38,200 nucleotides of DNA from Escherichia phage sortregn. The stretch lies in sequence record MN850588.1. The stretch is one strand, 5' to 3'. This document shows, piece by piece, positions 1 through 25,070 of this stretch. The translations under genes and the position numbers were made by a program. The notes under the pieces are model-generated. The model was not told the DNA's origin and searched no databases. It was given only the letters and a program-made list of their open reading frames with translations. Position 1 is the first letter of the stretch, and each line of letters begins with the position of its first letter.

Positions 1-1029
1 AAAATATTCTTTGTAACGTTGTTGTAAGTAGGTCGGAGTAGTCAGCGCGATCTCCTCCTGACCGTTTGCGTAGGCGGGCCACACGTCCGAGTCGCGGCAG
101 TGTTTGAACACCTGGAGCGCGGTCTTGTACTGCAAGCGCCCGATCATGATTTGCTCCGGCGTTAATCGGTTCATGAGCGCCAGCCACGGCTCGTCTTTTT
201 CCTGAACGAGGAGTTTAGTCCCCGCCGGATCCTGGTTATAGGCCAGCTTGAAACAGTCATGTTGTAAAGCCATCTTGCACCAGTAGCCCAGATCGTGAGC
301 CAGACGACCGAAGCGCTCCGGCTCCGCGCTTTGCGTGGTCTTGTAGTCGATGATCTCGCCGATGTCCGTCACGCGGTCCAGGCGGACCTTAACCGGGACG
401 CCATCGATCACGCAGAACAGCGACAACTCCGGGACGCCCGTCTCAATGATCCGGCGGTAGTTATGATTGACCAGCAACACGTCGCGCATTGAGTGAACGC
501 GGTCCCAGTCCTTCGCCGGGACGATCTCGCGACCGTTCGCCTCTTTGACGGCTTGCGCCTCGATCTCGTGCCAGATATTAAGCGTCTCGCCCGGCATTTG
601 TACGGCGCGACACATAGCGATCAATTCTTCGGCGGTTTTGTTGGAGTAGCCCTTCTGACCGCGTTCCTTTAGCCAGCTTTGCATCTTCGCTACTGACGTG
701 ATCAACTCCGGGAAGTCCTCCGGGTTAGGCAGACGGAAAAACTCGCGCTCGAAGCGTTCCGGCTCAAGTAACATCGTGTGGGAAGTGGTCCCGAATGTGA
801 GCGGCTTCTGGGCGGAGTTTAGTTTTTTGTTGGCGGCTTCCTGTGCTTTCTGGAAACGCCAGGCGGCGGGGCATTTGCTGTAAATGGTCCAGAGGCTCGA
901 CCCGGTAATGTAGATCTCGTCCTCGTGGTATTGCTCGTTTGTAAGCTGGTCGGCGCTCCGGGCGTCGATAAACATCGAAGCCGCGACGTCGTAGGACGGG
1001 AGCGCCGGGATCAATCCGTTCGTTTGCAT
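1..1029 (-). CDS. PD-(D/E)XK exonuclease (RecE/Cas4-like), C-terminus beyond window edge
   Basis: Absent from ORF track (no in-window stop). Hand translation from ATG 1029-1027 (GAGAGG RBS 8 nt upstream) stays open for 343 codons to nt 1: MQTNGLIPALPSYD...VKVRLDRVTDIGEIIDYKTTQSAEPERF... with a D..D/E-x-K nuclease core. Adjacent to VRR-NUC and helicase genes. Confidence 0.75.
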   Translation of the reverse strand, partial: MQTNGLIPALPSYDVAASMFIDARSADQLTNEQYHEDEIYITGSSLWTIYSKCPAAWRFQKAQEAANKKLNSAQKPLTFGTTSHTMLLEPERFEREFFRLPNPEDFPELITSVAKMQSWLKERGQKGYSNKTAEELIAMCRAVQMPGETLNIWHEIEAQAVKEANGREIVPAKDWDRVHSMRDVLLVNHNYRRIIETGVPELSLFCVIDGVPVKVRLDRVTDIGEIIDYKTTQSAEPERFGRLAHDLGYWCKMALQHDCFKLAYNQDPAGTKLLVQEKDEPWLALMNRLTPEQIMIGRLQYKTALQVFKHCRDSDVWPAYANGQEEIALTTPTYLQQRYKEYF

Positions 1030-1068
1030 TGTTGGGACCTCTCACTGGTGAATGTGAGAGGCATTAAA

Positions 1069-1536
1069 TCATTCTTTCGTGATGTTTGCAACTGGTAAAT
1101 TGAGATAATACTCCAGCGCCGCCAGGCCAGCCTCCGCACCCCATGCGACAGCAGTCCAGCCACCACGCGCCCGCGCTCGTTCGAGGACGGTCTTTTGTTC
1201 CGGCTTTAACCGGGACTTTCCGCGATTGTTCCGCTTCAACTCGATCAGCGCGAAGCCATAGCCGCCGCGAGGCTCCAGGAAAACCCAGTCAGAGATCCCG
1301 GCGAGGCGTCCGAGCGCGTTTAACTTCGCCCCGTACCGGGGATCGCTGGAGCCGCCGCTCTCGTTTACTGGGTGGAACGCCAGAAGCGCGTCGGGATCAG
1401 TGTGGGGATCGCCGTAAATCTCCCGGATGTTACTCGCCATGTTTTGCTGTTCGACGTCCTCGTGTGGCGAGTAGGTCGGAATGTGGTCCAGGTAGAACTC
1501 GCGCCAGAACTCAGTCTTTTTGTTTAATACAGGCAT
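1069..1536 (-). CDS. VRR-NUC domain nuclease
   Basis: ORF 1069-1551. Preferred start ATG 1536 (GAGGG 9 nt upstream, 1 nt after helicase stop). GFALIELKRNNRGKSRLKPEQKTVLERARARGGW fits the VRR-NUC E-x-K ... x-x-Q pattern. Confidence 0.8.
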   Translation of the reverse strand: MPVLNKKTEFWREFYLDHIPTYSPHEDVEQQNMASNIREIYGDPHTDPDALLAFHPVNESGGSSDPRYGAKLNALGRLAGISDWVFLEPRGGYGFALIELKRNNRGKSRLKPEQKTVLERARARGGWTAVAWGAEAGLAALEYYLNLPVANITKE

Positions 1537-1537
1537 G

Positions 1538-3580
1538 TTAAAAACCCTCATTCATGAATACTTTGTTAGTGATAACGTCTTTACCCTTGCCGATCTTCCG
1601 GTGGGTAACTTTCAGTGGGGCCATGAAGTACGGCGCGAAGGCGAGGACCTCCTGGGGCGTCCGTAGCTTCTTGATGTCGGCCCGTTTCTTTCCGTCCAGT
1701 ACGTGCTTAAGGATCCCATTGTGGAGCCATTCCTTTTTCGCCTGTGGGCTATCGCTACCGGGCCAGAATACTTGCCACGCCACGAACTGATCGCCGTCCT
1801 TCTCCAACTCGTACCGGAAGGCGATCCCCCCAGTCCCTCGCGCCAATTCCAGACGGAAGCCCCTCACGTTGTAGTAGTCGTCCCTGCTGTACGTGGTCCG
1901 GCTTAAGTTCTTGTTCGGATCTACGAGCGAGTTCCCGCAGCAGCGGCAGATCCTGGCTACGATGTCGTTTTGTGCGCCGCATCCCTTCTGTACCACCTTC
2001 CGCCCGCTGGAGTCCTTCCAGTCGTCGCAGGTGATGAACTGGAAAAAGTGTTCGCAGCGTTCGCCAGTGTCGGGATCGACGTAGCGGCAGCGTCGGGCGT
2101 GTTTGCCGTTTAGCGTCGGGTGGCCCGCCTTGCGACACTTCGGACAGTCTAACTCTAATTCTCCTTTGCTCTCGTCTGCGCTGTGCTGGTATGCCTCCAG
2201 CAGCGGGGAGAAATACAGGGATCCGAGTTCGTCAAGCGTCCCGGCATAGTCGAGGACCAGGTGATCCTCCTTCGTCACCCCGGCGGCGATGTGGAACGGC
2301 TTAAGGATGCGCATACCACGGCCTAAAAGCTGGGTTAGGAGCGTGAGGGATCCGATCTTCCGCAGTATCACGGACGTGTCCCAGAACGGGACGTTAACGC
2401 CAGTCGTTAGGGCGTTAACCTGGAATATAAATTTGATCTCCCCGGTATTGGCGCGGCGCAAAATGTCCATGCGCTTCTTGCCCGTCGTGTCGTCCGTGAT
2501 GATGGCGTAAGGCGTACCAGGGGGAAGGGCCTCCGCCGCCTGTTTGCAGTGTCTCACGCCCGCACACGTCACTAACACGCCGTTCCTGTGCTGGGCGATG
2601 GCGTATACCTCCGCCATGATCTCATGCGTGAGCTTTTTGTCCTTAAGGATCGCCTTTTGCATGGCGTCCATTTCGGCGTCCGTGAACTCCTTAATGCCAT
2701 CCTCGCCGGACGATCGCCACTGGTCGAGGTTGTAGTGGAGATTGGAGATCCCGAAGTGAGTCGGAACAACCGCGCCGACGCTTACCAGGTATTCCGTCGA
2801 GATCTCGCATACCTTCTTACGCCAAAATCCGGGCTGTTCGAGGTCTGGCTGGATGATGGACTCCACGCCACGGTATGGCGTCCCGGTGTAGCCAATAATG
2901 CGGAGTTCCTTCCCGTAGACCTCGCGGGCGCGTTGCTGGAATGTGCGGATAATGATCGTATAGCTGGAGCGACCCGCCTCGATCATCTCCTCGTAAGTCT
3001 CGCCCTTGTGCTCGCCGATAATGGTCGGCTCGTCGAAGCCGTCCAGGATGATCTCCCCGGTTTTCTCGTCCCGCAGGTACTCCGGGACCACGCGCTCCTG
3101 TGAGCGGATCAGGTCCTCAATGTTGACGTGATGGCATTCATCGATCAGCAGGAACAGCGGCGCGTAATGGGCGAGTGCCTGACCTGGGCGGAGTCCTCCG
3201 ATCACTGTACCCTCGGAGCCGACCACGATCGGGAAGTGTGCAGACTTGCGGCCCAGGCTGGCGCAGTAGATCGAGGAGTTCACGCCGAAGTTTTTCAACT
3301 CCTCGAAGTCCTGATCGATGATCTCCCCCTGGCGGGACAGGATCATGGCAGGGAAACCCATATCCCTGATCCGGCGGGCCAGCATGGAGATCATGATGGT
3401 TTTACCCGCACTCACGGCGGCGTCCACAATGACCGGGCCAGGATAGCGACGGATGGCCTCCGCGCAAGCCTCATACGCGACGAACTGGTGATCGTATGGT
3501 GTAACGGGCATATCTCCCAGGGCGCGGAGAATCGCGTCCCGGTCGAGCGCTTCGATCTGTTTCTCCAATGTCATTAACAT
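1538..3580 (-). CDS. SF2 (DEAD/DEAH-type) DNA helicase with C-terminal Zn-ribbon region
   Basis: 680 aa. Walker A VSAGKT, DECHH box, helicase C-terminal half, Cys-rich segment CPKCRK...CRYVD...CRCCGN. AAGGGA RBS. Confidence 0.9.
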   Translation of the reverse strand: MLMTLEKQIEALDRDAILRALGDMPVTPYDHQFVAYEACAEAIRRYPGPVIVDAAVSAGKTIMISMLARRIRDMGFPAMILSRQGEIIDQDFEELKNFGVNSSIYCASLGRKSAHFPIVVGSEGTVIGGLRPGQALAHYAPLFLLIDECHHVNIEDLIRSQERVVPEYLRDEKTGEIILDGFDEPTIIGEHKGETYEEMIEAGRSSYTIIIRTFQQRAREVYGKELRIIGYTGTPYRGVESIIQPDLEQPGFWRKKVCEISTEYLVSVGAVVPTHFGISNLHYNLDQWRSSGEDGIKEFTDAEMDAMQKAILKDKKLTHEIMAEVYAIAQHRNGVLVTCAGVRHCKQAAEALPPGTPYAIITDDTTGKKRMDILRRANTGEIKFIFQVNALTTGVNVPFWDTSVILRKIGSLTLLTQLLGRGMRILKPFHIAAGVTKEDHLVLDYAGTLDELGSLYFSPLLEAYQHSADESKGELELDCPKCRKAGHPTLNGKHARRCRYVDPDTGERCEHFFQFITCDDWKDSSGRKVVQKGCGAQNDIVARICRCCGNSLVDPNKNLSRTTYSRDDYYNVRGFRLELARGTGGIAFRYELEKDGDQFVAWQVFWPGSDSPQAKKEWLHNGILKHVLDGKKRADIKKLRTPQEVLAFAPYFMAPLKVTHRKIGKGKDVITNKVFMNEGF

Positions 3581-3590
3581 TGTTTATCCC

Positions 3591-3620
3591 TTGTAATATC
3601 ACTAAAGCATGATTTATAGT
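3591..3620 (+). promoter_or_regulatory. sigma70-like promoter candidate for the rightward early operon
   Basis: TTGTAA (3591-3596), 18-nt spacer, TATAGT (3615-3620), in the 65-nt divergent gap between the helicase and primase genes. Confidence 0.4.
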
Positions 3621-3645
3621 AACCGGGAAATAACCGGAGGGCAAT

Positions 3646-4464
3646 ATGGCGATCTACAAAAAAGAGGACGTTCTCGCGGCGATGCCCGGCAAATGGGAAC
3701 AGGCGCTCCTCGATCTTTGTGGCTGGGACCGCAAGGCGTTTAACGGCAATCATCAACCTTGCCCGATCTGTGGCGGGACGGACCGCTTTCGCTGGGGCCA
3801 TAAGCAACAGACGAAGAAGGCGGAGGGCTTCGGCTACTGTTCCGGCTCCTGTGGCGGCGCTCGTGATGGCATGTTTTGGTTCATGACCAGCCGATCGCAG
3901 CCGTTCAACGAGGCGATCAACGACCTGGGCGACTGGATAGGCGGACTCACCCCGGAGAAGCGGGAAACCATCGTCAAGGAGGCGCGGAAGTATGCCCGCC
4001 AGCAGGATAAGCCCGCGCAGGACTGGGAACTCACCCCGGAGGACGTGGACAAGATCATGAGCAAAGGCACGATGCGCGACGGATTCCTGTATGTTCCATG
4101 CGCTCGTCCACTGGGGGGATCCCTGGGGCCGTGGTGCAACGTGGCGAAGATCGGCTCCGACAGGTCCGTGGTGTTTGCCGCTGGTGGCCCGACGTGGGGC
4201 GCGGTAGGTCTGATCCACCCAGTGCCAGACGCTCCGGTGTATCTGGTGGCGGATCCGGTCCATGCGGTGAACGTGGCGGCGCGAGGGGAGGCGGAGGTCT
4301 GGCTTACGTTCCGGCCTATGAACGCGGTCCAGGCGTCGGCGATATATGACGGCGATCGGGAGATCCGGTTCGTCTACACTGACCCGGACGAGGTTTTCCT
4401 GTACGGCTACGAGAGGACGGGGAGGCCATGCGTCGGCGGGCATCTTGCCGGGGCGTTCGGGTAA
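3646..4464 (+). CDS. DNA primase-like protein (Zn-ribbon + Toprim-like)
   Basis: 272 aa. HQPCPICGGTDRFRW matches the primase-helicase zinc-binding motif (P4 alpha type). C-terminal VYLVADPVHAVNVAARGE is Toprim-like. GGAGGG RBS. Confidence 0.7.
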   Translation: MAIYKKEDVLAAMPGKWEQALLDLCGWDRKAFNGNHQPCPICGGTDRFRWGHKQQTKKAEGFGYCSGSCGGARDGMFWFMTSRSQPFNEAINDLGDWIGGLTPEKRETIVKEARKYARQQDKPAQDWELTPEDVDKIMSKGTMRDGFLYVPCARPLGGSLGPWCNVAKIGSDRSVVFAAGGPTWGAVGLIHPVPDAPVYLVADPVHAVNVAARGEAEVWLTFRPMNAVQASAIYDGDREIRFVYTDPDEVFLYGYERTGRPCVGGHLAGAFG

Positions 4465-4489
4465 AAAAAAAGGCCCCGCACGAGGGGCC
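4463..4489 (-). terminator. intrinsic-terminator-like hairpin oriented for leftward transcription
   Basis: A9 run (4463-4471), then GGCCCC-GCACGA-GGGGCC (4472-4489). On the minus strand this reads as a hairpin followed by a U9 run. There is no T-run on the plus side. Confidence 0.5.
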
Positions 4490-4542
4490 AGTGGGCGCGA
4501 CCGATACCAGCGGGCGCTAAAGCAATGGTGAACAGTCAACAA

Positions 4543-4560
4543 ATAGCACTTTTTGTTAAA
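4543..4560 (+). repeat. conserved element ATAGCACTTTTTGTTAAA (copy 1)
   Basis: 17/18 identical to 6855-6872. Both copies follow a terminator hairpin and precede CAATTATC (4577-4584) and the next gene. Confidence 0.6.
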
Positions 4561-4616
4561 ACACAAAACAGTTAATCAATTATCGTTAGTCACCACCAAC
4601 CAAAGAAGGGCAGCAG

Positions 4617-5258
4617 ATGAAAGACGAGAAAGACACCACCACGATCGATCATGTGGACGGCATGACCGAGGCGGAACGCGCAGCGGCAGACGTGACCACT
4701 GTTAGCGGTCGCCGCTTCAACAAATCCAAGACGCCGGACGCTATCCGCCAGAAGTGGCAGACCCCGCGCTGGCTGTTCGACTGGGCCGTGAAGCGCTTCG
4801 GGCAATTCGGGATCGATGTGGCAGCAGAAAAGGCTAACGCCCTTTGTGATGTCTACCTGGACGAGAAAACGGACGCCCTCAAGGATGGCGTGGAGTGGGG
4901 AGCCGAGGGCGGGCTGGCGTGGTGTAACCCGCCATACGCGGAGCCGCTTCCGTGGATCGTGAAGGCCATCCAGCAAGCGAAGGATCGCGACGTTACGACC
5001 GTGTTTCTCCTGAACTCCGACGCGTCTACGGCGTGGTTTAAGAAGGCGCTGGACGCCGGGAGCCTGGTTATCCATATCACCAGCGACGGCGAGAACTCCG
5101 GGCGCGTGGCGTTCGTGAAGGCCGGGACCGAAGTCGCGGGCAAGAAGAACAGCAAGCCGTCCGTAATGTTCGTTATCAAGCCGAAGAAGCGCGGACCGAT
5201 CAAGACTGAATATCTGACCCAGGCGGAGATGATGTTCGAAGGCAAAACGATGATTTAA
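4617..5258 (+). CDS. dam: DNA N6-adenine methyltransferase, small phage Dam family
   Basis: 213 aa. LAWCNPPY catalytic (D/N)PPY motif; size and layout of phage Dam enzymes (T1 / Stx-phage type). AAGAAGGG RBS. Confidence 0.85.
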   Translation: MKDEKDTTTIDHVDGMTEAERAAADVTTVSGRRFNKSKTPDAIRQKWQTPRWLFDWAVKRFGQFGIDVAAEKANALCDVYLDEKTDALKDGVEWGAEGGLAWCNPPYAEPLPWIVKAIQQAKDRDVTTVFLLNSDASTAWFKKALDAGSLVIHITSDGENSGRVAFVKAGTEVAGKKNSKPSVMFVIKPKKRGPIKTEYLTQAEMMFEGKTMI

Positions 5259-5274
5259 CCGAGAGGACCCAGAG

Positions 5275-5856
5275 ATGATTATTTATGCACCAGTAAGCGC
5301 CTTACGCGCTCACCAACTGACCAAAGGCCAGCAGGACGTCCGCTATTACCTGAACGCGATCCACTTCATCGGCAACCGGATCCGCACGTCTAACGGTCAT
5401 GTTTGCATGGAAAGCACCCATAAGCTCGTCAACGCGCCGGAGGAGGGGATCATCCTCTCAATCTCCACGCCACCGACTGGGCGGATCTTCTCCGCCGTGA
5501 TCGACACGGACGCCGGGATCGTGTACTGGCTGGACATTCCGGCAGATAAGCCGAAGGACCTCGAAGAAGTGGACCACAAAAAGGCCCGCGTCGCTGTGGG
5601 GACCGTGGACATTGTGGAGGCCAATTATCCGAACGTGGACGCACTCCTGAACAAGGCCCGCGAGAACTCGAAGGCCGTCCACGAGATCGGCGTGGCGACG
5701 CCTTACCTCGGAATGATCGAGAAGCTGGCGAAGAAGTTCGGGATCAAGATGCCTTTTGCGAAACTGAACTTTAACGGCGCAGCGGAGCCGATCCGCGTGA
5801 ACCTGACCACGCCGGACGGCGAGGCCACCCTGATCATTATGCCCGCGAGAGTGTAA
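5275..5856 (+). CDS. truncated DnaN (beta sliding clamp) homologue
   Basis: 193 aa. GQQDVRYYLNAIHF..RTSNGHVCM resembles the E. coli DnaN domain II start (..HQDVRYYLNGMLF..ATDGHRLAV..). ANYPNVDALL resembles GRFPDYRRVLP, and C-terminal ATLIIMPARV resembles AAYVVMPMRL. No domain I equivalent. GAGAGGA RBS. Confidence 0.6.
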   Translation: MIIYAPVSALRAHQLTKGQQDVRYYLNAIHFIGNRIRTSNGHVCMESTHKLVNAPEEGIILSISTPPTGRIFSAVIDTDAGIVYWLDIPADKPKDLEEVDHKKARVAVGTVDIVEANYPNVDALLNKARENSKAVHEIGVATPYLGMIEKLAKKFGIKMPFAKLNFNGAAEPIRVNLTTPDGEATLIIMPARV

Positions 5857-5858
5857 GC

Positions 5859-6083
5859 ATGGGACCTTATCAGACCTACCGCTGGAAATATTTCGTCCGT
5901 TGCGTGGCGGACGAACTCATGGATCGTAAACTGGTGGCCTCCCGCGAGGAGGCCGAGCACTTCGCCGAAGATCTGGAGGATTCGTTCGCGGAGGACTACG
6001 ACCCGCGTCCGATCTCAGAATGGCGAGCTATCGCGAAGAAAGACGCAGACGACTACGAGAAGGATCTGAAACGTGAAGCATAA
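5859..6083 (+). CDS. hypothetical acidic protein
   Basis: 74 aa ORF starting 3 nt after the upstream stop. Acidic (EDLEDSFAEDYD), no recognisable motif. Confidence 0.6.
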   Translation: MGPYQTYRWKYFVRCVADELMDRKLVASREEAEHFAEDLEDSFAEDYDPRPISEWRAIAKKDADDYEKDLKREA

Positions 6084-6825
6084 GGCGATCTTTTTATTCA
6101 ACCTGACCCGGATCATGGTGGACAAGTGGCTGGACGCTGGCGTGGAATGCTGGATGTATGACGGGCAGCACGAGCCAGGGATCCACCCAGACGCCGACGA
6201 GCCGAACCTGATCCGAGTGGGCCGGATGTTCGACGCGGACAACTCAATCAGGGAAGCGGCTCGCATCGCCGAGGAAGTCGGCCCCGGCGTGATCTTCGTG
6301 GCGTCCTTCGCTGAATGCACCGATCTAACCTGTACCGGGGCGCGATGGTGGGAAGCGAAGCGCAAGAAGGATCCGCGCTTCCAGGAGAAGGCCGTGGCGC
6401 TGGCTAAGATGGTGAAGCACGTCGCGGAATTTTGCAGCGTGGAGAACGGCAGCTTTGAACCCGCTTCGACGGTCCCCTGGATGCTGGAGAATCCGAAGAT
6501 CTCCCGACTCTCCACGATGTGGCGACCTTGCGATCACTGGTTCCACCCCTACAACTTCGGCGGCTACTTGCCGGAGGATCACCAGCATAGCCTCTACCCG
6601 GAGATCTACCCGGCGCGGGACGCGTACCCGAAGCAGACGGGGATCTGGTGCGGTGGCGGCTTCAAGATGCCGGAACACAAGAACGTCCCGGCGGTTAAGG
6701 ATAATCCCGGATGGTCGAAGCTGGGCGGATCTTCGACCCGAACGAAGAACATCCGCAGCGCCACCCCCGAAGGCTTCGCCGTCGCCGTGTTTATCTACAA
6801 CGCCACCCCGATCGCTCCATTCTGA
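6073..6825 (+). CDS. C5-cytosine-methyltransferase-like protein (divergent)
   Basis: 250 aa; GTG start overlaps the upstream stop (GAAGGA RBS). SFAECTDLTCTGARWW (cf. PPCT.L..SG.RW), WMLENP (ENV-like motif) and C-terminal RSATPEGFAVAV. This is the pattern of a phage family usually annotated DNA cytosine methylase. No canonical FxGxG. Confidence 0.5.
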   Translation: MKHKAIFLFNLTRIMVDKWLDAGVECWMYDGQHEPGIHPDADEPNLIRVGRMFDADNSIREAARIAEEVGPGVIFVASFAECTDLTCTGARWWEAKRKKDPRFQEKAVALAKMVKHVAEFCSVENGSFEPASTVPWMLENPKISRLSTMWRPCDHWFHPYNFGGYLPEDHQHSLYPEIYPARDAYPKQTGIWCGGGFKMPEHKNVPAVKDNPGWSKLGGSSTRTKNIRSATPEGFAVAVFIYNATPIAPF

Positions 6826-6828
6826 CAC

Positions 6829-6850
6829 AAGGCCCTCCGGGGCCTTTTTT
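6829..6850 (+). terminator. rho-independent terminator
   Basis: AAGGCCC-TCCG-GGGCCTT stem-loop followed by a T6 run, 4 nt after the stop of the methylase-like gene. Confidence 0.75.
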
Positions 6851-6854
6851 GCGT

Positions 6855-6872
6855 ATAGCACTTTTTGCTAAA
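6855..6872 (+). repeat. conserved element ATAGCACTTTTTGCTAAA (copy 2)
   Basis: 17/18 identical to 4543-4560. AGCACTTT recurs at 6872-6879 and CAATTATC at 6880-6887. Confidence 0.6.
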
Positions 6873-6927
6873 GCACTTTCAATTATCCTTTGTTATTATT
6901 CTTTCACACCAACACGAGGACGACGAA

Positions 6928-7152
6928 ATGAAACAGACTTTACTCCCGACCAAAACAAACAAGGCTCAACTGGTTAACCCGCTGTTACTGAAACAGGCGC
7001 ACATCCTGATCGAGGTGGCGATGATTCTCCGTAATCGCCTGAAAATGTACGCCGCCGGGCCAGCAGCTACAGCAGCTTTAAAGCGCGAGGCTCGCCAGGC
7101 AGAGGACGACGCTCGCGAACTGATCCGAGGCGCTTATGGTTATCGCCCGTAA
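6928..7152 (+). CDS. hypothetical protein
   Basis: ORF 6865-7152. ATG 6928 preferred (GAGGA RBS); the upstream part overlaps the conserved non-coding element. Confidence 0.6.
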   Translation: MKQTLLPTKTNKAQLVNPLLLKQAHILIEVAMILRNRLKMYAAGPAATAALKREARQAEDDARELIRGAYGYRP

Positions 7153-7411
7153 GACTTCGCGCCGGGAGTTATGGGAGGCGGCGCAAGCCGCCGAACTGGA
7201 CGGCATGATCAGCGCAGTCTCCCGCGTGTTCGGCAAGGAGGCGATCGCCGACATATCGATCGAGACGCCGGACGGCGAGATGTACCTGAACAACCCGGAC
7301 CCGCACCACTGGCGCGTCGTGCCTGGGACTAAAGGCGGAAAGAACGCTCTCAAAGACGCGATCGCCGACACCAAAAACCGGAAGCACCTCAAAGGGGGAT
7401 CTCGTGGGTAA
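7136..7411 (+). CDS. hypothetical protein
   Basis: 91 aa; GAGG 5 nt upstream of ATG; 17-nt overlap with the upstream gene. Confidence 0.6.
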   Translation: MVIARKTSRRELWEAAQAAELDGMISAVSRVFGKEAIADISIETPDGEMYLNNPDPHHWRVVPGTKGGKNALKDAIADTKNRKHLKGGSRG

Positions 7412-7796
7412 AGTAACAGCGAAGATTATCGGATGGACTGACGAGCAGGACGCGGAACTGGTTCGCCTGGCTGGAACCATGCCAGCGCCGGACCTGGCGA
7501 AGAAGATAAAACGCAACTTCCGCCAGATGCAGGTCCAGGCGTCGAAGCTGGGGATCTCCCTGGCGTACCGCAGGACGTACACGCAATGGACAGCGGAGGA
7601 GGACCGGAAGCTGGTCCGCTTCTGGGAGGATAAACTGACCCCGGAGGACGTGGTGGAGATCGCAGAGACTACGGGGATCTATGAAGTGACCCGCGACGAA
7701 CTGACACACGAGCACGTCGCGACCTGGCTCGACAAATCGCGCCCGGCAGTACGCGGACGCCTGGCAAAATTCAAGAAAGAGGGGAAAATAGCATGA
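7404..7796 (+). CDS. tandem Myb/SANT- or GcrA-like HTH DNA-binding protein
   Basis: 130 aa; GTG start with AAGGGGG RBS. Two repeats: WTDEQDAELVRLAG..LAKKIKRNFRQMQVQASKLGISL and WTAEEDRKLVRFWE..SRPAVRGRLAKF. The first resembles the GcrA N-terminus (WTDERV..L..LW..GLSASQIA..LGGVTRNAVIGKVHRLGLS) as recalled. Confidence 0.6.
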   Translation: MGKVTAKIIGWTDEQDAELVRLAGTMPAPDLAKKIKRNFRQMQVQASKLGISLAYRRTYTQWTAEEDRKLVRFWEDKLTPEDVVEIAETTGIYEVTRDELTHEHVATWLDKSRPAVRGRLAKFKKEGKIA

Positions 7797-7894
7797 CTGA
7801 CTTACGCGGAAGTAAATACGTTATATGGGGCGTAATCGCAGCCAGCGCCGCGCTGTGGGCTTTAATCGGTTTTGGCGTGTCGATGGTACTCTAA
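7793..7894 (+). CDS. small membrane protein (33 aa)
   Basis: Below the ORF-track cutoff. ATGA overlap with the upstream stop. MTDLRGSKYVIWGVIAASAALWALIGFGVSMVL has one TM helix. Followed by a terminator. Confidence 0.5.
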   Translation: MTDLRGSKYVIWGVIAASAALWALIGFGVSMVL

Positions 7895-7902
7895 AAAAAA
7901 GG

Positions 7903-7930
7903 GCCGCTTAAAAAGCGGCTCCTTTCGTTT
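7903..7930 (+). terminator. rho-independent terminator ending the rightward early operon
   Basis: GCCGCTT-AAA-AAGCGGC stem-loop followed by TCCTTTCGTTT, and preceded by an A8 run. Confidence 0.7.
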
Positions 7931-7990
7931 AAACGCCAGAGATGATCTACAATGCCCCGGCAGTATAACCAAACAAGAGAGGACCCGACA

Positions 7991-8788
7991 ATGGGGAATT
8001 TTTGGACCTACCACGAGAACACCCAGCGCGGCGGGATCGAACTGGGCCGAGTAATCGACCCGGCGAAAGCCTCGCGCCCGGTGATCTACCTAGAATCAGA
8101 TCCGCCAGGTCTGGACGCGGCGAAGGTTTCCGCCTTCATGCCGTACTACGTTTACACTCCGATGTCCTTCACTCAGGACTTGCCGGGAGTGGCTGGTGGC
8201 GATGCCGCCGCGACCTTCGTCCCTGGGGGGAGCACGTTCTCCGCGACGGTCGAAGTCGCCGGAGGTCAAGCGCCGTTTACTTATCAGTGGTACAAGTTTA
8301 GCGGCGGAGTCGGAACGGCGATCACGCTGGCGCAGAACGCCACGGCCCAGTCGAAGGTATTCCAGATCACCAACTACACCGCAGCGGCTCAACCCGGATC
8401 CGGTAACGGTGATTGGTATGTTGTCGTAACCGACGCGACCGGGGCCACGCTCCAGTCTCAGCGCATCCGCACGAAACAGGCGATCGCCTACTCCGTCAAC
8501 CTACCGACGACCGACACCTGGACCGTCGGGACCGCCGACGCCTTAACCGTCACCGTGAACGCGGCTACGGGCCTTGCGCCGTATACTCATGAATGGTTTA
8601 AGGATGGCGTTTCTCAGGGGCCGGGGACGTCGAGCGGGACGGGGAACGCGACCTCCACGCTATCGAAGGCAAGCCCGGCAGCGGGCGACGCTGGCGTGTA
8701 TTATTGCATTTCCACCAGCGCCAACACGAACCCGCCGAAAACCATCCAGAGCATTTCTTGCACTGTAACCGTTAACCCGGCAGCATAA
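7991..8788 (+). CDS. Ig-like domain protein (two I-set-like repeats)
   Basis: Start ATG 7991 preferred (AGAGAGGA RBS; the 7952 ATG has no RBS). Ig-like repeats ..APFTYQWYKF..GDWYVVVTDATG.. and ..APYTHEWFKDG..DAGVYYCISTS..CTVTV. Confidence 0.75.
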   Translation: MGNFWTYHENTQRGGIELGRVIDPAKASRPVIYLESDPPGLDAAKVSAFMPYYVYTPMSFTQDLPGVAGGDAAATFVPGGSTFSATVEVAGGQAPFTYQWYKFSGGVGTAITLAQNATAQSKVFQITNYTAAAQPGSGNGDWYVVVTDATGATLQSQRIRTKQAIAYSVNLPTTDTWTVGTADALTVTVNAATGLAPYTHEWFKDGVSQGPGTSSGTGNATSTLSKASPAAGDAGVYYCISTSANTNPPKTIQSISCTVTVNPAA

Positions 8789-14656: not shown

Positions 14657-14670
14657 CCGGGGCGTGTGTT

Positions 14671-14811
14671 GGTAACGAGTAACACCCCCCCTTATAGGGG
14701 GGGATGTAACGTGTTACCGCAACCCACAAGGCCGAAAACATAGTTTTTTATGTGTACTGTTACCGACAAGCGACCGTAATCAAATCAATCATTTATGTGT
14801 GATTCGGTAAC
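14671..14811. repeat. GGTAAC/GTTACC hexamer cluster downstream of the RepA-like gene
   Basis: GGTAAC 14671-14676, aGTAAC 14678-14683, tGTAAC 14705-14710, GTTACC 14713-14718 and 14759-14764, GGTAAC 14806-14811. Confidence 0.55.
14685..14703. other. C7-TTATA-G7 perfect hairpin/palindrome
   Basis: CCCCCCC (14685-14691) TTATA GGGGGGG (14697-14703), bracketed by GTAAC motifs. No U-run. Confidence 0.6.
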
Positions 14812-14824
14812 GGGGAAAGTAGCG

Positions 14825-14872
14825 AATCGGTCGCGGGGAAATCGGGGGGTAAAAATCGGGGGTGACCCCCGA
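14825..14872. repeat. AATCGG(G)n direct repeats ending in a near-palindrome
   Basis: AATCGG 14825-14830, AATCGGGGGG 14840-14849, AATCGGGGG 14854-14862. TCGGGGGTGACCCCCGA 14856-14872 is palindromic apart from the centre. Confidence 0.55.
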
Positions 14873-14911
14873 CAAAATCCCCGCCAAATAATCATTGATA
14901 AGTGATGCGAA

Positions 14912-15100
14912 ATGAGCGACGATAACAACGTTATTTTATTCCCCAGACGGACACCGATCGGAGAGGTTCAACCAGTACGATCGAACGTCTGGATCGAGCG
15001 CTTCGGAATGTGGAATTACTTCCTGATGGTAGCGACAACCATCGGCGCGATCGTGGTCGGACTGGCGGCGATCGTGTTTAACATGCTGGGCCTGATGTGA
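14912..15100 (+). CDS. small membrane protein
   Basis: 62 aa with a C-terminal TM helix (YFLMVATTIGAIVVGLAAIVFNMLGL). Weak RBS. Confidence 0.5.
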   Translation: MSDDNNVILFPRRTPIGEVQPVRSNVWIERFGMWNYFLMVATTIGAIVVGLAAIVFNMLGLM

Positions 15101-15130
15101 GGCCCGTCACGACGACGAGGAAACGAGGAG

Positions 15131-15259
15131 ATGATGATGAATGACGAACACGGCAAGAAATCCAACGTAGCGGACGTCTCGCATATGTATGTAGGCCCGA
15201 ACCAACGCGCCTCACTGCTGGAGAAGGCGTTCGAGATGTTCAGAGCGGCGGCGTCGTGA
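15131..15259 (+). CDS. hypothetical small protein (42 aa)
   Basis: Below the ORF-track cutoff. Strong GAGGAG RBS directly upstream of ATGATGATG. Hand translated MMMNDEHGKKSNVADVSHMYVGPNQRASLLEKAFEMFRAAAS. Confidence 0.45.
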   Translation: MMMNDEHGKKSNVADVSHMYVGPNQRASLLEKAFEMFRAAAS

Positions 15260-15281
15260 TCCTGGACTCGTCCGTGGTCGA

Positions 15282-15554
15282 ATGGTCCGAAGTGGAGGCA
15301 TACCGCCCGGCAAAGTGAGGGCCGGGACCTGGGGGGATCGCCAGGCGGAGCGGCCTCCCTACTACGTGCAGATCAATAACCGCGTAGTGACCCCGGCGGA
15401 GTTCCACCGCCAGAAGCAGGAATTTATGAGGGGCGCGGTGATTGTAGTCCCACCGGACGAACCAACGTTCCCGATCGGCGAGATATGTCGCGGGATCCTG
15501 ATGATGTTCGGGCTATTCGCCCTGCTGTGGTTCGTGCTTACCTTCTTAAGATAA
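15282..15554 (+). CDS. hypothetical membrane protein
   Basis: 90-aa ORF with C-terminal TM (ILMMFGLFALLWFVLTFL). No good RBS at 15282; an internal start (MRGAVIVV, AGGAA upstream) is possible. Confidence 0.45.
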   Translation: MVRSGGIPPGKVRAGTWGDRQAERPPYYVQINNRVVTPAEFHRQKQEFMRGAVIVVPPDEPTFPIGEICRGILMMFGLFALLWFVLTFLR

Positions 15555-15619
15555 CGCTTGCATGATGTACGCCCCGGCGATATGCTGGGGCCGTTTCCAC
15601 CCACGAGAGAGATCGAACA

Positions 15620-16258
15620 ATGTCAATATTCACTTTCATTAATCGCAAACTGGGCCGTTTCAAGACGTGCCGGACCTGCAAGGATAAGCACCCTTGCGGC
15701 TTCGGGGAATGGCCTTCGATGTTCTTCATGTGCGACAAGTGCCAGAACAAGACGCTGGAGGAGCTATTCGAACCGGGACGCCTTAACCGCCTGACGATGG
15801 TCCACCAGACGGAGGAACAGATGGCAGAGTCCCGCCGCCGTCTGGGGCCGTTGATCGACAGCCTGGTGAGCCAGCAGCGCCAGAGCAAACAAACCGCAGC
15901 CCAGACCCAGGCAGCGAAGGCCGCGCAGTATCGCGACCCGCGATCGGTGGCAATGGCCCGCCAGATGGCGCACGACCCACGCCCGGCGGCTCGTGGTACG
16001 CAGCAGGATCCGATCTCGGACCCGATGCACCTCCTCAACCCGTTAAACCCGCTCTCCCCAGTGTCTCCGCTCAACCCGCTGAACGACTGGGACGACAGCA
16101 GCCACCGCCACCACGTCGCGCCAGCCATGAGCGAGCCGACGGAATGCCACACCACCAGCCACTCCTCCGGCTATGAGTCCAGCAGCAGCGACTACAGCAG
16201 CAGCAGCTACGACAGCGGGAGCGACTCCTCCAGCTACTCGTCCGGGGGCTGTGACTGA
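15620..16258 (+). CDS. Zn-ribbon protein with NPL repeats and Ser/Tyr/Asp-rich tail
   Basis: 212 aa; GAGAGAG RBS. CRTC-x17-CDKC, Q-rich middle, NPLNPLSPVSPLNPLN, and tail SSSSDYSSSSYDSGSDSSSYSSGGCD. Confidence 0.65.
   Translation: MSIFTFINRKLGRFKTCRTCKDKHPCGFGEWPSMFFMCDKCQNKTLEELFEPGRLNRLTMVHQTEEQMAESRRRLGPLIDSLVSQQRQSKQTAAQTQAAKAAQYRDPRSVAMARQMAHDPRPAARGTQQDPISDPMHLLNPLNPLSPVSPLNPLNDWDDSSHRHHVAPAMSEPTECHTTSHSSGYESSSSDYSSSSYDSGSDSSSYSSGGCD
16181..16245 (+). repeat. imperfect AGC-rich trinucleotide tract inside a CDS
   Basis: agcagcagcgactacagcagcagcagctacgacagcgggagcgactcctccagctactcgtcc encodes the Ser/Tyr/Asp tail of the 212-aa protein. Confidence 0.6.
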
Positions 16259-16554
16259 TGGCGATGGACAAGGACCGCAGGGTGGGCCGCACGAAGGCGG
16301 AAGCGCAACTCCTGAAACTCAAGCTGTACAAGGGGCCGGAGTGCAAGGTCCACGGCGGGAACTTCACCCGGTACACGTCAAACGGCGCTTGTGTGCTGTG
16401 CCGTAAGCTGGAGGCCGACACGACGAAGGGCAAGAGCCGGGGCTATATCGCCAAGAAGCGCGACACGCTGGCGTTTAATCACCCGGTTTCACCCTGGCCC
16501 ATAACCGCCGAGAATATGCACCTGTGCCCGGATCTCTCGTTCAAGCGAACTTGA
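16258..16554 (+). CDS. hypothetical Cys/His Zn-binding-like protein
   Basis: 98 aa; TGATG overlap with the upstream stop. ECKVHGGNFTRYTSNGACVLC pattern. Confidence 0.6.
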   Translation: MAMDKDRRVGRTKAEAQLLKLKLYKGPECKVHGGNFTRYTSNGACVLCRKLEADTTKGKSRGYIAKKRDTLAFNHPVSPWPITAENMHLCPDLSFKRT

Positions 16555-16576
16555 TCACGCTTCCGTAACCGCCGAT

Positions 16577-16626
16577 AATCCTCCGCGTAACCCTGTGACA
16601 CTCAGGCGATAAACGGAGGATTTTTT
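16577..16626 (+). promoter_or_regulatory. long-range hairpin pairing an anti-SD with the terS Shine-Dalgarno
   Basis: AATCCTCCG (16577-16585) can pair with CGGAGGATT (16614-16622). The latter holds the GGAGGA SD 9 nt upstream of the terS ATG. The loop is 28 nt and T6 follows. Confidence 0.4.
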
Positions 16627-16630
16627 CATC

Positions 16631-17185
16631 ATGGCAAACGAACAGAACCTTAAGAAGGGGAACCGCTTCTCCAAAGAGAACCAGCCGGAGCGACGCGGCA
16701 GGGCGAAGCAGAACCGGACGTTACTCCTCGAAGCACTCCGCAAGGTTCGGATCAAGGAGGCCACCGGGCGCAAGGTCGAGGACATCGATCCAAACACTGG
16801 CGAGGTGAAGGTGAACAGCGAAACGGGCGAGCCGATCATGGTGGACGAGTTCGTGGAGGTCCCGCTCACGGAGGACATGTTCATCCAGCGAGCGATCCAG
16901 ATGGCCCTCGTAGACGGTTCCATGATGCGCGACATCATGAGCCGATTAATCCCCTACACCAAGCCGACCAGCCCGACCTATTGCTTTGAACTGACCGGAT
17001 CCACCCCGTCCGAGCGTATCACCGAGATCGAGGACCTGGTGGCAGCGGGAGAGCTTCCGTTCGACGCGGCGGAGTCTATGGTGAAGATGATCCGCCACGG
17101 CGCGGAAGTGTTCGAAATGTCCGAAATGGTCAAACGACTGGACGCACTGGAGGCCCGACTGAATGGCGAAGCCAAAGACGAATAA
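16631..17185 (+). CDS. terS: putative terminase small subunit
   Basis: 184 aa upstream of terL, separated from it by the 144-aa HExxH gene. Basic N-terminus KKGNRFSKENQPERRGR typical of small-terminase-like DNA-binding N-termini, and coiled-coil C-terminus. Largely a positional call. Confidence 0.6.
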   Translation: MANEQNLKKGNRFSKENQPERRGRAKQNRTLLLEALRKVRIKEATGRKVEDIDPNTGEVKVNSETGEPIMVDEFVEVPLTEDMFIQRAIQMALVDGSMMRDIMSRLIPYTKPTSPTYCFELTGSTPSERITEIEDLVAAGELPFDAAESMVKMIRHGAEVFEMSEMVKRLDALEARLNGEAKDE

Positions 17186-17597
17186 ACTCCCGCCGGACAC
17201 TTACGGCAGACTGGAGGCGCTGGGCCTGAAATGGTTCACCGCCTCCCCTTACCCTTATTTCATCGTGTGCTTTGACCCGCAGGACGAGGAGATGGTGGCG
17301 AAGCTGGGCGAATGCTTCCCGGACTGGAACCGCGAGAAGCCGATCCAGCAAGGCGTCGCCATTGAGTACCACGCCGCCGACGTTAAGCTGGTGTTCGTAG
17401 GCGTCCGCCGGGGCCAATACTGGCGGACGACCATCGTCCACGAGATCGTCCACGTTAAGAACTACATCGGCGACACGCTGGGGATCGAGTGGGACGTGAA
17501 CAACGACGAGCCGGAGGCTTACTTCGTGGGCTGGCTGTTTAACATGATGGAGCAAACCTTCCAGGATCTGGGCTATGGCAAAAAATCGAAAGGATAA
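17163..17597 (+). CDS. HExxH motif protein (putative zinc metallopeptidase)
   Basis: 144 aa. IVHEIVHV followed 19 residues after the second His by EPEAY. Overlaps terS and terL by 23 nt each, in a third frame. Confidence 0.6.
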   Translation: MAKPKTNKLPPDTYGRLEALGLKWFTASPYPYFIVCFDPQDEEMVAKLGECFPDWNREKPIQQGVAIEYHAADVKLVFVGVRRGQYWRTTIVHEIVHVKNYIGDTLGIEWDVNNDEPEAYFVGWLFNMMEQTFQDLGYGKKSKG

Positions 17598-22647: not shown

Positions 22648-22690
22648 GATGGGCGAATACATCGCGTATGCAACAAAACGAGGATCTACG

Positions 22691-25051: not shown

Positions 25052-25070
25052 CCTATCAAGAGGATCTACC

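Follow-up and report, generated by a model that had tools for sequence, protein, structure and literature searches.

Three genes of Escherichia phage sortregn (MN850588.1), coding for a Dam-type methylase, a second methylase-like protein and a tandem-HTH protein, are best read as two orphan DNA-modification enzymes made together with replication proteins, and a separate probable HTH regulator that shows no sign of depending on methylation. A probability of about one half was assigned to this explanation as a whole. Most likely the phage simply methylates its own DNA, as is ordinary for phages, and encodes a regulator yet to be characterised; this arrangement is preferred because methylation reading by the HTH protein is not shown by anything in the sequence. 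Positions are those of the window, the whole 38,200-nt stretch of sortregn DNA that was analysed.

Gene order and transcription units

The cluster (Table 1) is the middle part of the replication (early/middle) genes of a virulent Murrayvirus podophage and is surrounded by primase, helicase and recombination genes. With 3600-8000 as query, Salmonella phage Lumpael was 98.8% identical to sortregn. The three open reading frames on which the first-pass annotation was built were found where it had placed them, all on the + strand. They had been assigned to one operon; all genes do run rightward, but a terminator and a promoter-like element separate the second methylase from the HTH unit. Unit 1 is ordered Dam, gp32, gp31 and C5-methylase-fold protein, and unit 2 gp29, gp28, HTH gene and 33-aa peptide.

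The terminator stem is invariant in six phages, and alignment showed the extended -10-like TGTTATTAT to be kept in Murrayvirus, Sortsnevirus and Kosakonia phage Kc237. Unit 2 would thus have its own promoter behind the terminator. The 21-nt upstream element occurs in only two copies genome-wide and is common to both units in Murrayvirus; a candidate promoter is placed near 4550. Synteny of Dam, second methylase and HTH gene is kept across three phage groups; together with the common element, this is compatible with functional coupling of both units. The hairpin after the primase gene is terminator-like on the - strand only, since its A9 lies upstream and a U-tract is missing on the + strand. 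For the ORF called at 6865, the true start is probably the conserved ATG at 6928. A Pfam search with the 193-aa protein gave no match.

Table 1. Coordinates of genes, protein modules and regulatory elements in the cluster.
Feature	Position	Strand	Remarks
Sigma70-like promoter candidate, TTGTAA-18-TATAGT	3591..3620	+	ahead of primase gene; holds one of three CTAAAGCA copies
DNA primase	3646..4464	+	first gene of rightward cluster; PF08273, PHROG 510
Conserved GC hairpin	4472..4489	.	after primase gene; A9 before stem; no + strand U-tract
21-nt element TAGCACTTTTTGTTAAAACAC	4544..4564	+	upstream of Dam; conserved within Murrayvirus
Phage Dam-type N6-adenine DNA methyltransferase, 213 aa	4617..5258	+	NPPY at residues 104-107
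193-aa protein	5275..5856	+	PHROG 3007; records differ: 'RusA-like resolvase' or 'beta clamp'
74-aa protein	5859..6083	+	PHROG 2676; 3' end overlaps start of second-methylase gene
Compact C5-cytosine-methyltransferase-fold protein, 250 aa	6073..6825	+	catalytic-type Cys82; ENP 139-141; motif I LFNLTR
Intrinsic terminator	6829..6851	+	7-bp GC stem (6829-6846) and U6; closes Dam-to-methylase unit
21-nt element, second copy TAGCACTTTTTGCTAAAGCAC	6856..6876	+	repeat of 4544..4564 element
Putative extended -10-like TGTTATTAT	6891..6899	+	read from alignment
74-aa protein	6928..7152	+	start moved from TTG 6865
91-aa protein	7136..7411	+	PHROG 2817; 8-nt overlap with HTH gene start
Tandem-HTH protein, 130 aa	7404..7796	+	basic (pI 9.4); PHROG 323, E 1.3e-18, residues 5-126
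HTH module 1	residues 10-53 (7431-7562)	+	part of 130-aa protein
HTH module 2	residues 61-130 (7584-7793)	+	part of 130-aa protein
33-aa hydrophobic peptide	7793..7894	+	start codon overlaps stop codon of HTH gene
Strong hairpin	7901..7921	+	-18 kcal/mol, z -4.75, weak U-tract; ends HTH unit

Modification enzymes and GATC sites

The Dam-family identity proposed earlier was upheld by PF05869 (E 5.7e-44), by the NPPY motif and by the 'phage N-6-adenine-methyltransferase' equivalog TIGR01712 (116.6 bits, cut-off 97). Like the members of this phage Dam family, the sortregn protein is matched over its full length above curated cut-offs, carries NPPY and is an orphan enzyme in a replication module. 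The family includes the Dam enzymes of T1, HP1 and Stx phages, and we take its characterised members to define the specificity as GATC. From these relatives and the GATC-rich genome, we infer that the sortregn enzyme methylates GATC.

The GATC excess noted in the first pass was reproduced, with 494 sites, or one per 77 bp of the genome; base composition alone would predict 3.6 times fewer. In 46 coding sequences there were 453 sites, against 256.5 +/- 10 under synonymous-codon shuffling, and non-coding DNA has no excess. The bases on either side of GATC mirror GC content only, so that an extended motif was rejected. A simple anti-restriction model leaves the genome-wide excess unexplained. Literature searches yielded nothing on methylation in Murrayvirus or on the GATC excess, and the strong coding-only excess of the Murrayvirus/Sortsnevirus clade is worth a separate study.

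The second protein had been described as divergent and C5-methylase-like. Its fold, the motif IV Cys and a motif VI of the E-N-V type bear this out; a PF00145 match and a canonical motif I were not found, nor was any Pfam, NCBIfam or PDB sequence match. DNMT3-type enzymes were the top matches. Compared with C5-cytosine methyltransferases (DNMT3A/B catalytic domain, M.HhaI; PF00145), it is smaller (about 240 aa) and its target-recognition region is minimal. This family, labelled 'Dcm methylase', has a compact DNMT3-like fold that no Pfam model covers. In place of the SAM-binding F-x-G-x-G of motif I, LFNLTR is found here and LFDxTG in most family members, so that SAM binding is not assured. The protein might write another C5 adduct (e.g. 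carboxymethyl) or be catalytically impaired in this lineage, instead of writing plain 5-methylcytosine. We consider this unlikely, as the family is strongly conserved (mean column identity 49% over 217 homologues), with no variation at the catalytic Cys, at ENP or at one conserved Arg, and the best matches are genuine methyltransferases.

In the preferred explanation, unit 1 would supply both modification enzymes along with replication proteins. The Dam-type enzyme would methylate GATC, the second enzyme would attack cytosine C5, and together they would hold newly replicated phage DNA fully modified. Full modification could protect against restriction and could avert the effects of under-methylated GATC when replication outpaces host Dam.

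Architecture and relatives of the tandem-HTH protein

Two HTH repeats had been reported in the 130-aa protein; the quoted sequence was exact, and two modules were seen in both the structural model and the sequence. In the predicted structure (pLDDT 81), module 1 is a three-helix domain (residues 13-49). Module 2 (residues 64-126) is predicted to open with the same WTxEED helix, to have an inserted helix (80-90) and to end in a helix-turn-helix. The internal repeat is detectable though weak, and module 1 scored 61 bits against a profile of 204 repeat units of the family. The product would be monomer-sized, with its two recognition helices set on adjacent DNA grooves.

Judged by sequence, the true family is PHROG 323 and the multi-repeat WTxEED proteins of bacteria and phages. 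A profile search collected 661 WTxEED proteins, most with 4-13 module copies, and the best phage matches to the family consensus were Murrayvirus proteins. The Murrayvirus protein has two modules only, the second of them diverged. PHROG 323 is a 'transcription regulation' family ('transcriptional regulator, D5-like'); the label suggests a possible link to the D5 dsDNA-binding protein of T5. Literature searches gave no demonstrated function or activity, binding site or target gene for family members. A BFVD structure search returned many similar small two-HTH phage proteins, all uncharacterised, and PDB searches with the 130-aa sequence and with the family profile gave insignificant matches only.

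The first repeat had been likened to GcrA. Among characterised HTH domains, the GcrA DNA-binding domain was the best full-length match to module 1, which appears to be its distant cousin. As in GcrA (Caulobacter crescentus; PF07750; PDB 5yiu, 5yix, 7ye1), module 1 spans about 45 residues in three helices, with a W-T-D-E start and an L-G-(L/I)-S end, and each protein is encoded near an N6-adenine methylase. The likeness does not extend to family membership, the sigma70 domain or the methyl-pocket residues. Pfam GcrA did not match the 130-aa protein at E <= 1 or any of 23 family members at E <= 10, which places it outside the GcrA family. It has no Cys and lacks the sigma70-interacting CCCH zinc domain, long disordered linker and basic tail of GcrA, carrying a second HTH module instead of the C-terminal sigma70 domain. 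The settings differ also: the sortregn host is enterobacterial and its methylase Dam-type, whereas GcrA belongs to a CcrM/GANTC system. The methyl pocket of GcrA is formed by R33, N34, I37 and G38 (PMC5887438). A gapless helix-3 alignment (HMMER and hhalign, both run on the family profile) places F39, R40, Q43 and V44 of the 130-aa protein at these positions, but this alignment is uncertain and at the detection limit, and an alternative gapped version pairs R33 with R40 and I37 with V44.

Myb/SANT domains (PF00249, PF13921; c-Myb R2R3) likewise have tandem three-helix repeats. Their alignments with the 130-aa protein cover mainly helix 1, and module 2 differs in its inserted helix and AsnC/Crp-like HTH. 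PF00249 matched helix 1 only and stayed below its gathering scores (14.8 bits versus 24.4, 15.7 versus 22.9). The three regularly spaced Trp/aromatic residues of each Myb-type repeat are absent, with Trp at 11, 62, 74 and 108 and W11 alone in module 1. In a single-repeat Pfam scan, the scores of Sigma70_r4_2, Myb and GcrA differed by no more than 3 bits, and none reached its cut-off. A phage protein family hitherto uncharacterised can be assigned to the large group of WTxEED HTH-repeat proteins, which forms a link between Myb domains and the DNA-binding domain of GcrA.

Methylation reading, DNA handling and candidate targets

To our knowledge, GcrA is the only bacterial HTH protein known as an m6A reader for transcription. 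A circuit of epigenetic timing or self-recognition had been suggested for sortregn, in which the HTH protein prefers m6A-GATC written by the phage Dam and so times transcription or marks phage DNA as self. The distant homology of module 1, the conserved gene order with Dam and the extreme GATC density are in its favour, as is a candidate late promoter (16551-16579) that has GATC in the -35 hexamer in 4/5 phages. A leader hairpin lies at 16577-16623. We regard it as very improbable nonetheless. The GcrA pocket residues are not conserved in the alignment with the best support, the sigma70-interaction domain is missing, and the HTH gene stands in its own unit behind a terminator. In six phages, neither GATC nor GANTC occurs in any of the cluster's three intergenic regions; the caveat already attached to the suggestion, that its promoter candidates lack GATC, holds for the cluster promoters. 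GATC is not in excess in non-coding DNA or embedded in an extended motif. The -35 GATC has been lost from IME279, and one GATC inside a 29-bp promoter is unremarkable at the genomic spacing. GATC methylation cannot tell self from host, because the host itself is Dam+. Other phages and prophages carry the second-methylase family with neither an HTH nor a PF05869 neighbour, and in L009 an HTH homologue (54% identical) adjoins a non-methylase gene.

Very improbable, too, is a version in which the 130-aa protein, a tandem HTH of GcrA-DBD stock, is a new and minimal kind of m6A reader that recognises the extremely dense Dam-methylated GATC array. Late transcription or the handling of the genome would then be tied to methylation state, and with it to replication status; the conserved late promoter with the -35 GATC is one place where this might happen. 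If methylation were indeed read, enterobacterial phages would gain their first described methylation-reading transcription factor, and the GcrA principle would reach beyond alphaproteobacteria. From its sequence, there is no indication that the HTH protein depends on methylation.

The HTH protein could also be an accessory that binds an origin or packaging site and not a transcription factor; small HTH proteins often fill such DNA-handling roles. Its gene lies within the replication module, and a possible site is the GATC-free, repeat-rich non-coding region of 255 bp at 14657-14911, downstream of the AAA_25 primase/helicase gene, with a 48-bp near-palindrome and GTAAC/GTTAC repeats. This role was given a low probability: no oligomerisation domain is predicted in the model, GGTAACG is not significantly enriched, and the PHROG label is one of transcription regulation. 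As a small terminase the protein was rejected, since the gene for the large terminase is immediately preceded by better-placed candidates (16631-17185 and 17163-17597).

The preferred role is that of a transcription regulator, which might act, for example, in the early-to-late switch; it would share ancestry with the GcrA DNA-binding domain, without sigma70 tethering or methyl-reading pockets. In a search for its binding site, the intergenic regions were found to share only terminator stems and CTAAAGCA, whose three copies all lie within the methylase/HTH cluster. CTAAAGCA is an unlikely target, as Sortsnevirus keeps the recognition helix but not CTAAAGCA. No enrichment was seen for TCACNCCAAC, TCAATTATC or GGTAACG. 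The recognition helix (R37-V44) is invariant in 23 homologues with identity down to 53%, so the protein should bind a sequence that is conserved in phage or host DNA.

Methylases and the GATC excess

The window is a full, already published phage genome (MN850588; Podoviridae, Murrayvirus, 59.3% GC, 38,200 bp; PMC7552041). GenBank labels the three genes as two 'DNA methyltransferases' and one 'hypothetical protein'; the last, the HTH protein, is 100% identical to 'sortregn_11'. Across 3600-8000 (4.4-kb query), Salmonella phage Lumpael (Murrayvirus) is 98.8% identical to the window. The likeliest mechanism (probability about 0.5) has two independent parts, orphan methylases and a separately transcribed DNA-binding regulator. 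The methylases would be expressed alongside replication genes and would keep the GATC-dense genome modified; the HTH protein would be a sequence-specific regulator with some conserved target.

Coordinates of the features discussed
Feature	Position (strand)	Description
8-mer CTAAAGCA	3602, 4517, 6868	three copies
Hairpin after primase gene	4463-4489	conserved; A9 before, no U-run after
21-nt element TAGCACTTTTTGYTAAARCAC	4544-4564; 6856-6876	before Dam; before the HTH unit
Dam	4617-5258 (+)	NPPY at residues 104-107
ORF between the methylases	5275-5856	193 aa
Second methylase	6073-6825 (+)	PHROG 757
gp29, annotated start	6865	TTG, 95 aa
gp29, alternative start	6928	ATG, 74 aa
HTH protein	7404-7796 (+)	130 aa
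Ribosome-binding context (G)AGGATCTAC	7935-7951; 22675-22690; 25055-25070	just before ATG of three late/structural genes; variant GATGATCTAC ahead of the first
Segment after AAA_25 primase/helicase gene	14657-14911	255 bp, non-coding, no GATC
Near-palindrome	14671-14718	48 bp
Candidate late promoter	16551-16579	TTGATC-17-GATAAT, sigma70-like
Promoter with leader hairpin	16551-16636	AAUCCUCCG...CGGAGGAUU + U-run
First late gene	16631

All three ORFs had been delimited correctly in the first-pass annotation, and its assignment of the first to the Dam family was borne out (PF05869, E 5.7e-44; TIGR01712 equivalog above the curated cut-off). Pfam, NCBIfam and PDB sequence searches with the second methylase returned no match. 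Its family, named 'Dcm methylase' by the sources, has at least 217 members. In an alignment of 34 homologues, Cys82 was invariant within F-(A/P)-E-C-T-D-L-T, as was E139-N140-P141, and motif I was non-canonical. Both writers are well supported; that the second has non-standard chemistry is improbable, a question independent of the other three readings. Its homologues on a 50-kb phage contig and within Vibrio prophage regions lacked the HTH module, and no PF05869 neighbour was recorded within 6 kb of them. The family as a whole (window protein and homologues P0024-P0143) is covered by neither a Pfam nor an NCBIfam model and lacks sequence relatives in PDB; it is predicted to adopt a compact DNMT3-like C5-methyltransferase fold with a minimal target-recognition region. 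RefSeq/PHROG call the 193-aa product encoded between the methylases a 'RusA-like Holliday junction resolvase', other records a 'beta sliding clamp'; Pfam and NCBIfam scans gave no match.

The GATC excess noticed earlier is real and large: with 494 sites, or one per 77 bp, the genome has 3.6 times as many as composition predicts. The 46 coding sequences held 453 sites, against 256.5 +/- 10 once synonymous codons were shuffled within genes (z 19.6). The excess was present in nearly every gene; 314 of the 453 sites lay in frame xxG-ATC, and 70% of ATC codons had G before them. All relatives shared the excess: the ratio to composition was 2.6-3.6 among phages of Murrayvirus, Sortsnevirus and Kosakonia and about 1.8-2.0 in three metagenomic relatives (L008-L010). 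GANTC and CCWGG showed no excess when tested, and no extended motif was found around GATC. Non-coding DNA held 6 sites in 1313 nt (4.5 predicted by composition, 17 at genome-wide density), so the excess belongs to coding DNA, not promoters. GATC was missing from the four longest segments that look regulatory (together 574 nt), and the cluster's three intergenic regions, the two internal ones aligned in six phages, contained neither GATC nor GANTC. As for the suggested phage self-recognition by GATC methylation, the host is itself Dam+, so the mark cannot set phage DNA apart in kind, and only density can differ. The ribosome-binding context of the three late/structural genes places GATC within the Shine-Dalgarno/start-codon spacer. 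CTAG is nearly missing genome-wide, with 4 sites where codon shuffling predicts 21 in coding sequence; over the whole window GGCC is under-represented (z -5.1) and CCGG over-represented (z 4.5).

The tandem HTH protein

The protein sequence quoted earlier was correct, and its two W-T-D/A-E-x-D repeats are real: module 2 begins with the same W-T-x-E-E-D helix as module 1. The structural model (pLDDT 81) placed module 1 in helices 13-22, 28-35 and 39-49, a disordered hinge at 57-59, and module 2 in helices 64-74, 80-90, 102-108 and 113-126, where the W-T-x-E-E-D helix is followed by an inserted helix and an HTH resembling those of Lrp/AsnC and Crp. The family proper comprised only 23 clusters, every one from the present phage group. 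In a metagenomic relative with a 54% identical homologue, the upstream gene encoded a 206-aa non-methylase (contig incomplete). The conserved target is proposed because the recognition helix is invariant among homologues; action of the protein at the origin or in packaging is an unlikely alternative.

On the choice between GcrA and Myb, direct comparison gave weak evidence. None of the 23 HTH-family sequences matched Pfam GcrA, even at E <= 10, and 15 of them gave sub-threshold Pfam matches to Myb in helix 1. PDB sequence searches with the protein and family gave no significant match. More was learnt from a profile search covering 1.84 billion representative proteins, which gave 661 matches, chiefly long proteins of bacteria or phages in which the module (consensus RPWTEEEDALLRKLYGTMPAKEIAKRLGRTVRAVQARARKLGLSL) recurs 4-13 times in tandem. 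Against a profile built from 204 full-length units, selected by the phage domain-1 HMM, the phage module scored 61 bits, the Caulobacter GcrA DBD 30.6 bits over its entire length, and c-Myb repeats 11-15 bits over part of theirs. With single-sequence templates, hhalign of the family profile gave 97.6% for the GcrA DBD (E 3e-12), 87-93% for Myb R1-R3 (partial), 28% for the Lrp HTH, 2% for sigma70 region 4 and <1% for the homeodomain; the Murrayvirus domain-1 profile alone gave 48% for the GcrA DBD (58% against a GcrA alignment), 28% for Myb R1 and <1% for the others. The GcrA resemblance thus probably reflects real but distant homology of the DNA-binding module. By these sequence profiles GcrA is a nearer relative than Myb, although single-unit Pfam scans do place the family between Myb, GcrA-N and sigma70-r4-type HTHs.

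Membership of the GcrA family fails. GcrA consists of a DBD (1-45), a linker (46-107) and a domain based on a CCCH zinc finger that interacts with sigma70 region 2 (108-173) (PMC5887438), whereas the phage protein has only 130 residues, no cysteine and a second HTH as its C-terminal half. The methyl pockets of GcrA are formed by R33/N34/I37/G38, with base contacts by H41/R42, and I37E, G38Y and G38W impair activation at methylated promoters (PMC5887438). The phage protein has Q and V at the I37 and G38 positions, which in view of those mutants argues against the same pockets; an alternative gapped alignment preserved two of the four pocket positions, one as R and one as a hydrophobic residue, and the residue comparison is strong but not absolute. 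The putative reader is a generic tandem HTH, probably of GcrA-DBD/Myb ancestry, and nothing in it points to methyl reading or sigma70 tethering. This weighs against a circuit in which it reads methylation written by the phage enzymes, a reading we consider highly improbable.

Transcription units and the late promoter

Murrayvirus, Sortsnevirus and two Kosakonia phages share one gene order: primase, Dam, gp32, (gp31), second methylase, gap, gp29, gp28, HTH, (33-aa peptide), decoration/tail-like protein. The single operon proposed is too simple a description of the cluster: a canonical terminator (GGCCCUCCGGGGCC + U6, -13.7 kcal/mol; invariant in six phages) follows the second methylase, and past it a conserved block with an extended -10-like TGTTATTAT precedes the conserved ATG of gp29. 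The genome has exactly two copies of the 21-nt element, and their placement suggests that the Dam and HTH units are co-regulated within Murrayvirus. The 8-mer is confined to the cluster's three intergenic regions. Both are kept within Murrayvirus and not in Sortsnevirus, which has ordinary -35/-10 hexamers in place of the 21-nt element. Translation of gp29 probably starts at the ATG, which is conserved with its upstream block in six phages; 6865-6927 overlaps the promoter-like element. Only on the - strand is the hairpin after the primase gene terminator-like, yet none of the genes on that strand runs into it.

Promoter candidates had been said to carry no GATC. This is so within the cluster's intergenic regions, but the candidate late promoter, upstream of small-terminase candidates and the whole packaging/structural operon, has one overlapping its -35 hexamer. 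This is the sole such candidate and a lead that keeps the methyl-reader idea alive. The promoter is conserved in five phages; IME279 has TTGATA and has lost the GATC, and at one GATC per 77 bp the overlap is statistically unremarkable. The conserved leader hairpin that follows would mask the first late gene's Shine-Dalgarno sequence and may serve as a leader terminator/attenuator for late genes; its stem is invariant and so shows no covariation.

In a comparison of window 15100-17575 with Lumpael 1-5600, a block of small hypothetical genes in Lumpael (gp05-gp12) had no recognisable counterpart in the window, which explains most of the 2.9-kb size gap between the two genomes. The segment after the AAA_25 gene contains, besides the near-palindrome, GTAAC/GTTAC repeats and AAATCGGGGG repeated twice, and may be an origin, a pac site or a regulatory region.
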